Below are positions 27,616-30,911 of a DNA stretch of 64,000 bases, piece by piece. The DNA is from Vulcanimicrobiota bacterium (lineage in GTDB: Bacteria; Vulcanimicrobiota; Vulcanimicrobiia; Vulcanimicrobiales; Vulcanimicrobiaceae): NCBI GenBank assembly GCA_963726285.1, contig CAVSBV010000004.1:18659-82658 (forward strand), written 5' to 3'. The translations under genes were made by a program, and so were the position numbers. Every line of letters starts with the position of its first letter. Position 1 is the stretch's first letter. A model generated the notes under the pieces. The model ran no database searches, was not told where the DNA came from, and saw only the letters and a program-made list of their open reading frames with translations.

Positions 27616-28795
27616 TGCGGTCCCGTTAGAGGTCGCGTTGAGTGATGTCGCCACGCCCATCAATGAGCGAGCATCGCCGCGTGAAGCACCGGACATCCCC
27701 TTTATCGGATTAGAGCACATCACCTCTTATTCCGGTCAGCTTATCGGCACTGGGACGACGGCTGACGTTTCAAGTAGCGTAGCAAGATACTCCGAAGGAG
27801 ACCTTCTTTATGGTCGCTTACGGCCATATCTTAATAAGGTGGTTGTGGCTCCGTTTGATGGCGCGGCGTCGGCTGAGTTTATTGTGCTGAGACCCATGTC
27901 CGAAAACGTGTCCACGGAATACCTTAGGCTCGTTCTCCGATCGCCGATGTTTCTTGCGTTCACGTCGCAATTGGATCGTGGCGACAGACCACGGGTTAAG
28001 TGGGAGCAGATCAATAGATTTCGCTTCGAGTTGCCGTCGCCTTCAGATCAAAGGGCGATAGTCGACACAACTGCTCAAATGATGGAGCGGGTTAAATCTG
28101 CTTCTTGCGAGGTCAAGAAGTCAGTGGATCTATCAAGGCTACTTCTTGCACGGTTTACAGCGAACATTTTCGAGACGGCTAGCGAGGAGCATTGGCCAGA
28201 GATTCCTTTCGGACAATTGATTGCTGAGATGCGAAATGGGCTAGCGACGAAGCCGGCAAATGAGCCGCCTGGAATTCCAATTCTGAGGATTTCATCTGTA
28301 CGTTCCTTTACCGTCAACCTCGCCGACGTGCGTTACCACACGCTACTAAACGGCGACGCAAAGTATTTGCTGCGCAATAGAGATTTGCTGTTCGTGCGCT
28401 TCAACGGAAATGCGGAACTGGTTGCTGGATGCGGGATGGTGAGAGAAATTACGGGGGATATCGTATACCCAGATAAACTGATTCGCGTACGTGTTGATGA
28501 ATCGAGGGTCTTGCCGGAATACATCGAGTTGATATTCGCTGGCGAGAAAATGCGTCAGGATGTGTCAGTATTCGTTCGCACTGCCGCTGGTCAGCATGGT
28601 ATCTCGGGAGGCGATCTAAAGCGCGTGTCCCTCCCAATCCCTCCGATTGGAACGCAGCGAAGGATCGTGAAGCGCTTTGCCGTGGTCCGAGACGGAATAC
28701 TGCGTGTGTTGCATCAATGCGACCGCGCTGCTGCTCTTGCTTCAAAGATGGAAGGCGCGATCCTTGCCAGAGTCGTGACCGTGGCAAGCATTTAA
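27605..28795 (+). CDS. hsdS: type I R-M specificity subunit
   Basis: About 396 aa from ATG 27605 (TTG at 27602 also possible), overlapping the hsdM end. Two target-recognition halves each carry the GDLLYGRLRPYLNKV / RDLLFVRFNGNAELVG type motif. Confidence 0.85.
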   Translation: MNTDAVPLEVALSDVATPINERASPREAPDIPFIGLEHITSYSGQLIGTGTTADVSSSVARYSEGDLLYGRLRPYLNKVVVAPFDGAASAEFIVLRPMSENVSTEYLRLVLRSPMFLAFTSQLDRGDRPRVKWEQINRFRFELPSPSDQRAIVDTTAQMMERVKSASCEVKKSVDLSRLLLARFTANIFETASEEHWPEIPFGQLIAEMRNGLATKPANEPPGIPILRISSVRSFTVNLADVRYHTLLNGDAKYLLRNRDLLFVRFNGNAELVAGCGMVREITGDIVYPDKLIRVRVDESRVLPEYIELIFAGEKMRQDVSVFVRTAAGQHGISGGDLKRVSLPIPPIGTQRRIVKRFAVVRDGILRVLHQCDRAAALASKMEGAILARVVTVASI

Positions 28796-30111
28796 GAGCC
28801 TAGGTCTTCGTCCGCGAACGTTATCACGTAGCTTTCGGACATGTGCCGGCGCGAAATGTTGTTGTCGGCCAGCGGCATGAACTCGCCGCGCTCAACGCTG
28901 ACGACACGCATATCGTATGCGAGTATTCGTAAGGCGTCCTGGTAATTCTTAATCGTAAAAGGCGTTGACTCGTTGTGCGCCGCGTATATCGACGCGACGG
29001 TTAGACGCTGGCCCCGAAACGCCGATGGTAGCTCCTTCGTTAGACGCTGCATTGGCGTCTCGCCACTTAAAGGTAGTTTAAGACCGCCCTCGCCGGGGTT
29101 GAACTCAAAACTCGCAACGCCGTCTTGGTCGACGTCAGACGAGGCTCGGGCCATAATGCCTTTCATGATCTTTTGCGCCGGATCTAGATTCTTGGTCGCA
29201 AACATGATGTGATGATCGACTGCGCCCGTCGGCTTGCGAAACCGGTACTGAAGCACGTGTTTCGCTCCGATGTCGTATAGCGCGTCCCGCATCCCACCGA
29301 GCAATATCCGCTCTCTCGCTTCTTCGTCGGCGCTTCGAGTAAGCTCAGTCCGTGCCGCCTCGACGCGCTCGGCACCGAAGAGTGCGTTCATGTGTGAGCG
29401 AACCTTAGAGTTGCGTACCGCCGCGTTGATTCTGTTGAAATTGAAATAGAAGGCGATTTCGCATCCCCAGTCCTTGAGGATCGCTTGCATTAAGTCGCGC
29501 GTGAGACCGGCGTACCCAAAGGGATCAAGAAACATGAACGTTGGAATGAGAGAGCGAGTTTTGAATAAGTCTTCGATTTGTTTGCGCGCAGACTCGCCAT
29601 GGGAGATCTTCGGGGCATACGCAAGTGAGTCGACGCCGTCGAGACCAGCGAGGGCCTTCGACAACGACTGAGCCGCATCGGGGTCCTTGTCCTCGAACAG
29701 CATGAGCGTGATCTTGCGCAGTTGCTCGTCGGCTAGCACGGTGCGTGCGATCTGAAGAGGCGTCGATTCTGTGCCGTCGGCGTAGATGCCGGGGCCCGCG
29801 AAGAAATCGAAGTAACCGATCTTACCGCTGCGCGTTTTCGTCTTCATCACTCTCGCCCACGCGGTGAAGTAGTCGACGACGATTTTACTCTTGACGGCCG
29901 AAGCTGTGCGCTGCGCGTTGAAGAAACCCCGAGCTTGGGGCTCGGAGTGAGGCTCGAGTGCCGCCGGCGTCTCGAAATCGGAGAAGAGTGCCGGGCTGTT
30001 GGGATCCGCCTTTCTCCTGCGCAAATAGGGTCTCCCGATGGCCTGTTCGCCGACATGTTCAAGGAACACAGGCGCGGCCCCGGCCTCCCTTTGCAGAGGG
30101 CGGCTCGACAT
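28792..30111 (-). CDS. tcmP: three-Cys-motif partner protein TcmP
   Basis: 439 aa. KSKIVVDYFTAWARVM...IGYFDFFAGPGIY matches my recollection of the TcmP (TIGR04474) N-terminal signature. It is adjacent to a Gp37/Gp68 gene, as that family typically is. Its stop overlaps the hsdS stop by 4 nt. Confidence 0.7.
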   Translation of the reverse strand: MSSRPLQREAGAAPVFLEHVGEQAIGRPYLRRRKADPNSPALFSDFETPAALEPHSEPQARGFFNAQRTASAVKSKIVVDYFTAWARVMKTKTRSGKIGYFDFFAGPGIYADGTESTPLQIARTVLADEQLRKITLMLFEDKDPDAAQSLSKALAGLDGVDSLAYAPKISHGESARKQIEDLFKTRSLIPTFMFLDPFGYAGLTRDLMQAILKDWGCEIAFYFNFNRINAAVRNSKVRSHMNALFGAERVEAARTELTRSADEEARERILLGGMRDALYDIGAKHVLQYRFRKPTGAVDHHIMFATKNLDPAQKIMKGIMARASSDVDQDGVASFEFNPGEGGLKLPLSGETPMQRLTKELPSAFRGQRLTVASIYAAHNESTPFTIKNYQDALRILAYDMRVVSVERGEFMPLADNNISRRHMSESYVITFADEDLGS

Positions 30112-30155
30112 GTCACACTACAAAACGGCCCGGAATGGGGGCCGGAGGAGCAACA

Positions 30156-30911
30156 GTGGCCGGCAAGAGCCAGATCGAGTGGACGGAAAACACCTGGAAC
30201 CCAGTTACGGGATGCACGCAGGTGTCGCCGGGGTGCGACCGGTGCTACGCCATGCGGCTCGTGAACGTACGGCAGGTCAACAATCCACGGAGCCCGCGTT
30301 ACGGACATCCCTTCGATGAGGTGATGCTACACGCGGATCGTCTCGATCAACCGTCCCGCTGGAAGTCGCCGAGGCGCATCTTCGTAAACAGCATGAGCGA
30401 TGTCTTTCATAAAGACGTGCCCGATGTTTTCATCGACCGCGTCTTCGGCGAAATGGAGCGATGCGGGCAGCACGTATTTCAGGTGCTCACCAAACGTGCC
30501 GAGCGGATGAAACGCTACGTCAATAAGCGCTACAAGGGATCGTCGTGCCCGCCACACATCTGGCTCGGCGTATCGGTCGAAAATATGGATTACGCATGGC
30601 GCGCAGAGATGCTCAGAGCGACCGCTGCAACCGTCCGCTGGGTTTCCGCGGAGCCGCTCATCGGCTCGGTATCGGGTCTGGAACTCGACGGCATTGACTG
30701 GCTCGTAGCCGGCGGCGAGTCCGGGCCAGGAGCGCGCCCGATGGACGCTCAGTGGGTCCGTGAGTTGCGCGACCAGTGCAAGATCGCCGGAGTGAAATTC
30801 TTCTTCAAGCAGTGGGGTGGCGAAACAAAGAAGGGCGGCGGCGAACAGGCCACGCTCGACGGCCGGCGCTGGACGCAATATCCGAGCAAGAAGACGAAGC
30901 GGGCCGCCTGA
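30156..30911 (+). CDS. phage Gp37/Gp68-family (DUF5131) three-Cys-motif protein
   Basis: 251 aa from GTG 30156, with GGAGGAG 5 nt upstream (ATG 30135 is an alternative). [32 protein letters not shown] is the family N-terminal signature with a Cx5Cx2C motif. Confidence 0.8.
   Translation: [251 protein letters not shown]

Follow-up and report, generated by a model that had tools for sequence, protein, structure and literature searches.

Here we analyze a pair of genes, one for a TcmP-family protein and one for a DUF5131 (Gp37/Gp68) protein, carried in 64,000 nucleotides of a Vulcanimicrobiota bacterium (contig CAVSBV010000004.1). We call that whole stretch the window. Both families already have a name (TIGR04474 and PF07505), and the pair is already listed as a candidate for defense in PADLOC, whose 145 phage-defense candidate (PDC) systems were derived from genes embedded in bacteriophage exclusion (BREX), defense island system associated with restriction-modification (DISARM), and type I restriction-modification (R-M) systems (Payne et al. 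2024, bioRxiv 10.1101/2024.01.29.577857). The window pair matches, as adjacent A and B genes, both PDC-M30 and PDC-M41: the DUF5131 protein scores 298.5 bits with M30B and 312.1 bits with M41B, and the TcmP protein matches the A models weakly (55.3 bits for M30A and 33 bits for M41A). Besides these weak matches, the window copy differs from the two candidates in that it is not embedded in another system, and in that its genes are divergent, an arrangement found in 4 of 74 complete pairs. The window copy is one further member of a known family, in an uncommon arrangement.

Three other described systems come close to parts of this one. The radical S-adenosylmethionine (SAM) DNA-repair enzyme SplB and the amino-methyltransferase RlmJ resemble the two proteins, and are compared with them below. 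The third is PrrC, which, according to Payne et al. (2024, bioRxiv 10.1101/2024.01.29.577857), is found almost only inside type I R-M systems. In two of the loci presented here the TcmP-DUF5131 pair is likewise found between hsdS and hsdR. Unlike PrrC, the pair is embedded in only a minority of its copies, has neither an ABC ATPase nor an anticodon-nuclease domain, and in the window lies outside the operon.

We find that the pair is a tightly linked, mobile cassette that recurs next to R-M systems of different types, and is not bound to them. The explanation that we favor, tentatively, is that the two proteins would be the subunits of one enzyme acting on DNA, serving in its island as a conflict module independent of the neighboring hsdRMS operon. 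This leaves essentially right the original prediction, made by a model from the sequence alone, which had suggested for the pair a role in DNA or RNA modification, defense, or counter-defense. The pair and its control region are, in window coordinates:

28792-30024, minus strand: tcmP, 410 amino acids from its likely TTG start at 30024 (the longest open reading frame, 28792-30111, starts at ATG 30111 and has 439 amino acids).
30025-30155: divergent control region of about 131 bp, with the motif TGTCACACTA at 30111-30120 and the DUF5131 Shine-Dalgarno sequence at 30144-30150.
30156-30911, plus strand: DUF5131 (Gp37/Gp68) gene, GTG start at 30156, 251 amino acids, radical-SAM-type, with the cysteine cluster Cx6Cx2C followed by Tyr, and GGESG at residues 186-190.

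The assignment of both proteins to the proposed families is confirmed, with the cutoffs exceeded by a wide margin. The TcmP protein has 143.7 bits with TIGR04474 (cutoff 53, E-value 1e-41), covering profile positions 3-262 of 263. The DUF5131 protein has 306.3 bits with PF07505 (gathering cutoff 28.9) over the full profile (1-243 of 243), and 321 bits with phrog_2045. Relative to the described members of these families, what is different in the window clade is a basic, disordered N-terminal tail in TcmP, and genes that are divergent instead of co-directional. The window copy keeps all the invariant residues of both families. A namesake in the literature, the gp37 of a paper on thymidine hypermodification, is an unrelated kinase.

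For the DUF5131 protein, the AlphaFold2 model is a small barrel (predicted local distance difference test, pLDDT, 89.2; predicted template modeling score, pTM, 0.88). When compared to the PDB using Foldseek, the top six matches are all spore photoproduct lyase (SPL; 4fhc; TMq 0.44-0.53), followed by the radical SAM protein NifB, and then by generic TIM barrels. DUF5131 is also a listed radical SAM subgroup at RadicalSAM.org (Megacluster-5-2), in the same megacluster as SPL. The Cx5Cx2C cluster that had been read from the sequence has to be amended, as the actual spacing is Cx6Cx2C followed by a tyrosine (C20, C27, C30, Y31). The three cysteines are invariant in 38 DUF5131 sequences; other invariant residues include Y31 and G186-G-E-S-G190, and C208 is nearly invariant. 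SplB, for which there is a structure (PDB 4FHC) and mutants, is thus the best structural match, and in both proteins an aromatic residue comes after the three cysteines. In comparison with SplB, DUF5131 is about 90 residues shorter, has Cx6Cx2C instead of Cx3Cx2C, and is paired with a partner of predicted methyltransferase fold. By sequence, using either the single sequence or a profile, no PDB chain matches DUF5131, and the only other radical SAM model found, TIGR04471 (radical SAM mobile pair protein A), is a weak match of 60 bits against a cutoff of 355.

The AlphaFold2 model of TcmP, built from an alignment of 37 sequences, has a pLDDT of 82.5 and a pTM of 0.80, and its Foldseek matches in the PDB are exclusively class I SAM-dependent methyltransferases (110 matches at E-values of 1e-3 or better). 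They include CmoA, COMT, TYW4, TrmM, and RlmJ, with RlmJ giving the longest superposition (TMq 0.34). All class I methyltransferase folds score at a TM of about 0.5, such that the ranking among them does not discriminate. A search of the viral structure library BFVD with TcmP also returned generic methyltransferases only, and searches of the PDB chains by sequence, single or as a profile, returned no match. The methyltransferase-like character claimed for the N-terminus is supported by this predicted fold together with the conservation of the SAM-loop motifs. The family-invariant glycine-rich SAM loop YxDxFAGPG (Y100-x-D102-x-F-A-G106-P-G108) is intact here, the acidic residue after strand 2 is conserved (F139, D141), and after strand 4 there is an invariant FxDP(F/W)GY (F194-x-D196-P197-(F/W)-G199-Y200). 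We take DP(F/W)GY to occupy the position of the (D/N)PP(Y/F) catalytic motif of amino-methyltransferases. TcmP also has a helical insertion and, at its C-terminus, a GMT-wHTH winged helix (PF22560, residues 350-399, 39 bits). Compared to RlmJ (PDB 4BLV), a class I amino-methyltransferase, the likeness is in the Rossmann-type fold, the FAGPG loop, D141, and DP(F/W)GY; the differences are that the second proline of the catalytic motif is replaced, that TcmP has the helical insertion and the winged helix, and that methyl transfer by TcmP is putative.

Upstream of the fold, the disordered tail of TcmP in the window clade (residues 30-58, window 29940-30024) has retained a patch of basic residues and, after it, a conserved (P/L)-x-L-F motif (RRRKADPNSPALF). 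This N-terminal tail is missing from the common TcmP family members of 370 amino acids. The motif bears a loose resemblance to the beta-clamp-binding motif QL[SD]LF.

The head-to-head orientation of the two genes was correctly predicted, and so was the overlap of 4 nt between the stops of hsdS (TAA 28793-28795) and TcmP (28794-28792). The distance of 44 bp proposed between the two starts, on the other hand, rests on the longest open reading frame of TcmP, and from TTG 30024 the likely spacing is about 131 bp. The start of tcmP is most likely TTG 30024 because ATG 30111 falls within a conserved non-coding motif where the relatives have ACG or ACA, because the closest TcmP homologs begin at the residue aligned with TTG 30024, which has a GGGAGA 6 nt upstream, because residues 1-64 of the longest open reading frame are disordered in the AlphaFold2 model, and because the spacer in the 82%-identical copy L001 (related loci are labeled L001, L002, and so on) is 134 bp long. 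This results in a gene at 28792-30024 and a divergent control region of 131 bp. The DUF5131 GTG, for its part, has the Shine-Dalgarno sequence GGAGGAG 5 nt ahead.

In an alignment of the control region with four relatives of the same divergent arrangement, TGTCACACTA is conserved in the clade. It occurs only once in the 3.2-Mb genome, and for that reason we rejected it as a site of a host regulon. TGTCACACTA may be a promoter or operator intrinsic to the cassette.

How tightly are the two genes linked? We collected 84 related loci, 4 by exact-protein look-ups and 80 from the at least 557 species-level genome hits found across many phyla. DUF5131 adjoins TcmP in 82 of the 84, and in one of the two exceptions there is no room left on the contig. 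This is far above chance, and it bears out the habitual partnership that had been asserted. Of the 74 complete pairs, 57 run in one direction with TcmP leading, and in most of these the stop and start codons overlap; another 3 also run in one direction, but with DUF5131 leading, 9 are convergent, 4 are divergent, and 1 is an in-frame fusion. The 4 divergent loci are the nearest relatives of the window pair. The single fusion comes from an Acidobacteriota metagenome-assembled genome (L084:9893-11908), in which TcmP and DUF5131 share a single open reading frame uninterrupted by a stop (...VLVHFPWKGSRMSSQSAIEWT...); it could be a fusion that occurs naturally, or the result of a sequencing error where the stop should be.

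The distance matrices of TcmP and DUF5131 are correlated (Mantel r = 0.50, p = 0.001), with TcmP diverging faster among pairs on the same contig (for example, 54% vs. 75% identity). With respect to L001, the ratio of nonsynonymous to synonymous substitution rates is 0.07 for TcmP and 0.06 for DUF5131, values that are approximate, as the synonymous changes are near saturation. By this comparative measure, both genes are under purifying selection. The copy is intact.

The homology between the window and the conjugative element of L001, at 77% nucleotide identity, spans exactly 28796-30909 and then ends. Because it stops at those two positions, the unit that moves is, on sequence grounds, the 2.1-kb TcmP-DUF5131 cassette. 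There is one copy of it in the genome of the window, and its spread is patchy: TcmP is present in 12-13 of the 201 genomes of the phylum (about 6%), and none of the other 3 genomes in the genus has it. The three closest relatives from the exact-protein look-up have no R-M neighbor. L001 lies between the genes for a coupling protein and a relaxase, L002 among small unknown genes, and L004 among SIR2, HNH, GIY-YIG, and SNF2 genes.

In the window itself, the surroundings of the pair are those of a mobile element that carries an R-M operon:

2523-4757: TraG-like protein, in the left part of the window.
7531-11055: relaxase-helicase, also in the left part.
22739-26155, plus strand: hsdR (Pfam, NCBIfam, PADLOC).
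26137-27615, plus strand: hsdM (Pfam, NCBIfam, PADLOC).
27602-28795, plus strand: hsdS (Pfam, NCBIfam, PADLOC).
30973-31155, plus strand: FliP C-terminal fragment (PF00813, profile positions 156-189 of 191), the right junction of the element.

Because the FliP fragment begins 62 bp past the DUF5131 stop, the pair is the final cargo of an integrated conjugative or mobilizable element, next to its right junction. Beyond the junction there is a Gp49/HTH_37 pair of the HigBA type. The type I operon hsdRMS (22739-28795) is complete without the pair and convergent with tcmP, so that the description of the pair as docked onto the end of the operon is accurate: it lies outside hsdRMS, with tcmP facing hsdS. 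The N-terminus of HsdR (window 22739-23100) has a DUF4145 domain, at residues 27-107, before the nuclease/helicase core.

The flagellar neighborhood appears again in a related metagenome contig. The L002 pair (L002:9120-20890, compared with window 28874-38537) is also about 8 kb from flhA, in a region where the flhA part has 73% nucleotide identity, and the cargo between the pair and flhA is different from that of the window. This pattern suggests that elements with the cassette reuse the same flagellar-operon site repeatedly.

Is the linkage to R-M incidental, then? Of the 83 distinct loci, 8 have R-M genes beside the pair, within 400 bp in all but one:

L005, the closest genome relative: hsdM-hsdS-hsdR follows DUF5131 on the same strand.
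L028: hsdS-SIR2-HerA-TcmP-DUF5131-hsdR.
L050: hsdM-hsdS-DUF7380/DUF4209-hypothetical-TcmP-DUF5131-hsdR.
L047: Res-TcmP-DUF5131-Mod.
L046: a Res-like gene immediately upstream.
L045: an N6_N4 methylase immediately upstream.
L021: an SNF2 helicase and an Eco57I/MmeI-like protein upstream.
L049: Mod and Res, 2.4 kb downstream.

By these gene-neighborhood counts the linkage is neither obligatory nor a product of chance. The part of the original prediction that gave weight to the position next to R-M stands insofar as the adjacency is recurrent; it does not stand as an obligation, given that about 90% of the copies have no R-M neighbor and that homology ends at the edges of the cassette. An obligate partnership with R-M we reject, since the adjacency is restricted to those few loci and the R-M types differ among them.

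One of these loci merits a separate look. In L028 (L028:4983-15095, a Nitrospira metagenome-assembled genome), a fragment of 72 codons (9771-9986) that resembles the N-terminus of hsdR is found right before tcmP, and the cassette looks as if it had been inserted at the 5′ end of hsdR.

Sequence evidence for SOS control is real for part of the family, and such control is absent from the window copy. The host LexA box is CGAAC-N4-GTTCG. Two GAAC-N4-GTTC boxes precede lexA, one of them a perfect CGAAC-N4-GTTCG, and the host genome has 17 sites with the perfect 14-mer, compared to 3.7 expected. We find no LexA box in the control region 30025-30155, where the best site has 2 mismatches and is at background level (the window has 96 such sites vs. 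73 expected). In the absence of a host-type box in this region, SOS control of the window copy was discarded. The alphaproteobacterial loci are different. A perfect GTTC-N7-GTTC is found 21-59 bp upstream of tcmP in 8 of 13 loci (L031, L032, L034, L039, L044, L048, L068, and L092), and in 11 of 13 with looser start calls, which bring in boxes close by in L013, L017, and L057. All 13 loci together, 254 kb of sequence, have 20 GTTC-N7-GTTC sites in total. A perfect GAAC-N4-GTTC is also found upstream in L009 (Ktedonobacteraceae, Chloroflexi) and in L037 (Saprospirales).

Elsewhere in the window, there is a perfect host-type LexA box, CGAACACCTGTTCG, at 22394-22407. It lies 31 bp upstream of the start of a gene for a 626-amino-acid protein (20483-22363, minus strand) and about 330 bp upstream of hsdR, and it is the sole perfect site in the 64 kb. 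Because of this box upstream of the 20483-22363 gene, part of the defense cargo may be switched on by DNA damage. On another contig of the same genome (C3, around 68214), a canonical SplB-like radical SAM gene (NPYRGCYHQCRFCYA, Cx3Cx2C) has a perfect LexA box 32 bp ahead of its start, from which it follows that the genome has a separate SOS-controlled enzyme of the SPL type besides DUF5131.

In phages the two families part ways. DUF5131 is found in 181 of 50,697 phage records, mostly actinophages, and TcmP in only 5, all Gordonia phages! The pair had been described as a recognized co-occurrence in phages and islands, and, as far as phages are concerned, that statement applies chiefly to DUF5131 without its partner. 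In the temperate Gordonia phages, the TcmP-family gene is close to the immunity repressor, which it immediately follows in Easley, with DUF5131 convergent and the integrase nearby. Genes in the repressor/integrase region are typically expressed from the prophage. A lone DUF5131 is present in Che9c (gp68), in RcapNL, and in a Synechococcus phage; in Che9c and in the Synechococcus phage the DUF5131 region also holds a gene for a RecT recombinase, and in RcapNL there is a DNA methyltransferase gene near DUF5131.

We now put these observations together. In the explanation that we tentatively favor, TcmP and DUF5131 would work as one complex on DNA. The winged helix of TcmP would bind nucleic acid, and its methyltransferase-fold pocket, with the SAM loop and DP(F/W)GY, would select and present a base, or perhaps methylate it. 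Catalysis would fall to DUF5131, as a minimal radical-SAM enzyme of the iron-sulfur type that is related to SPL and would perform hydrogen abstraction on the presented base. The pair would then serve as a DNA-level anti-phage or anti-plasmid module of the PDC-M30/M41 kind, and its placement beside R-M would reflect a habit of the cassette to settle in R-M and defense hot spots. The likeness to PDC-M30/M41 goes beyond the model matches, in that embedding of the pair is seen independently in L028 and L050.

A number of observations weigh against this explanation. At the level of the proteins, the fold matches are modest, with E-values about 1e-5 for TcmP to methyltransferases, and about 1e-3 with a TM of 0.5 for DUF5131 to SPL. 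No Pfam methyltransferase model matched at E-values up to 10 in six TcmP sequences, nor did DUF5131 match PF04055 at E-values up to 10, and its cysteine spacing departs from the canonical Cx3Cx2C. At the level of the loci, many copies are alone among housekeeping genes, for example in Melittangium and Bradyrhizobium, and a Pfam tally of 110 immediate neighbors found no family in more than 2 of them, and no conserved third gene. The LexA boxes of the alphaproteobacterial copies favor a function in DNA damage over one in immunity. Moreover, 96.7% of embedded genes point the same way as the system that flanks them (Payne et al. 2024, bioRxiv 10.1101/2024.01.29.577857); the window pair, unlike them, is outside the hsd operon and convergent with it. 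The PDC systems are themselves candidates, described as untested (Payne et al. 2024, bioRxiv 10.1101/2024.01.29.577857), and our literature search found no experiment on any family member, no functional study, and no later test of these PDC systems. Nor did the same search turn up a paper that gives the pair a function, in agreement with the original statement that none is established.

The alternatives differ in what they make of the same evidence. Repair functions such as rumAB and mucAB are carried by mobile elements, and the pair could be a cassette for the repair or tolerance of DNA damage, a mobile accessory in which an SPL-like enzyme reverses or processes a lesion flipped by TcmP, and whose place in a defense island is incidental. 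This is the main rival to the explanation above, and we consider it somewhat unlikely. The closest fold to DUF5131 is that of a DNA-repair enzyme, LexA boxes precede tcmP in the alphaproteobacterial loci and in L009 and L037, and phage DUF5131 genes without TcmP are found in early regions beside RecT recombinases, all of which point to repair; the window copy, however, has no LexA box, its genome already has the canonical SplB-like gene behind a perfect one, and embedding in R-M operons beside SIR2-HerA is not expected of a repair gene. A very unlikely proposal is that the pair is an accessory of the neighboring type I R-M system, either as a second line of defense that, like PrrC, would fire upon inhibition of the R-M enzyme, or for restriction alleviation or self-protection, by modifying or repairing host DNA. 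The recurrence of R-M at such short distances is consistent with it, as are the gap between hsdS and hsdR that the pair fills in L028 and L050, and the hsdMSR genes that follow DUF5131 in L005. But most copies have no R-M neighbor, and where there is one it may be type I of different families, type III-like, or Eco57I/MmeI-like. In the window, in addition, the pair is convergent with hsdS and comes with a control region of its own, hsdRMS is complete without it, and the pair is shared with L001, which has no R-M.

Two SAM-using enzymes could also put an unusual base modification on the DNA of the element or of the host, blocking foreign nucleases. Such self-marking or anti-restriction would agree with the intact SAM loop and the amino-methyltransferase-like DP(F/W)GY of TcmP, with the presence of the pair on conjugative elements and prophages, and with DUF5131 in 181 phage genomes. 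Against it, no cognate nuclease or third gene is conserved among the 110 immediate neighbors, TcmP is almost absent from lytic phages, and in L001 the pair is downstream of the relaxase gene, a position that by gene order is outside the leading region, the part first to enter the recipient. We hold it to be improbable. Finally, the target may not be DNA. Viperins are radical-SAM enzymes that make antiviral nucleotides, and the pair could, like the prokaryotic viperins, produce a small antiviral nucleotide analog that TcmP would methylate, or could modify tRNA or rRNA, as the best structural matches of TcmP include the RNA-modifying CmoA, TYW4, TrmM, and RlmJ. This we see as a long shot, in view of a winged helix, an SPL-like fold, LexA control elsewhere in the family, and RecT-linked phage homologs, which fit DNA better, and of a ranking of TcmP folds that is not discriminating.

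A more specific version can be formulated, which we regard as an unlikely conjecture. In it, TcmP and DUF5131 would form a radical-SAM machine of two subunits for editing or repairing bases in DNA. The fast-diverging TcmP, with its methyltransferase fold and winged helix, would pick and flip the base, and the conserved SPL-like enzyme would carry out radical chemistry on it. If true, LexA control in Alphaproteobacteria and embedding in N-methylating R-M operons would share one explanation. The function would protect or reset DNA where restriction and damage meet, for instance as restriction alleviation or as a radical-SAM immune effector, and with either one, bacterial DNA conflict would gain a new biochemical class.

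What makes this pair of interest is the chemistry of the family and not the window locus, as the window copy adds little that is new. It is, on the other hand, intact and only 2.1 kb long with its own control region, and it can be separated from its neighbors, which would make it a convenient construct for a first functional test. The family is large, with a TcmP relative encoded in at least 557 species-level genomes of many phyla. It rides on conjugative elements and prophages, sits inside restriction operons, and carries damage operators in Alphaproteobacteria. If the explanation that we tentatively favor is true, a radical-SAM enzyme working on DNA together with a methyltransferase-fold partner would be a new chemistry for immunity or repair.

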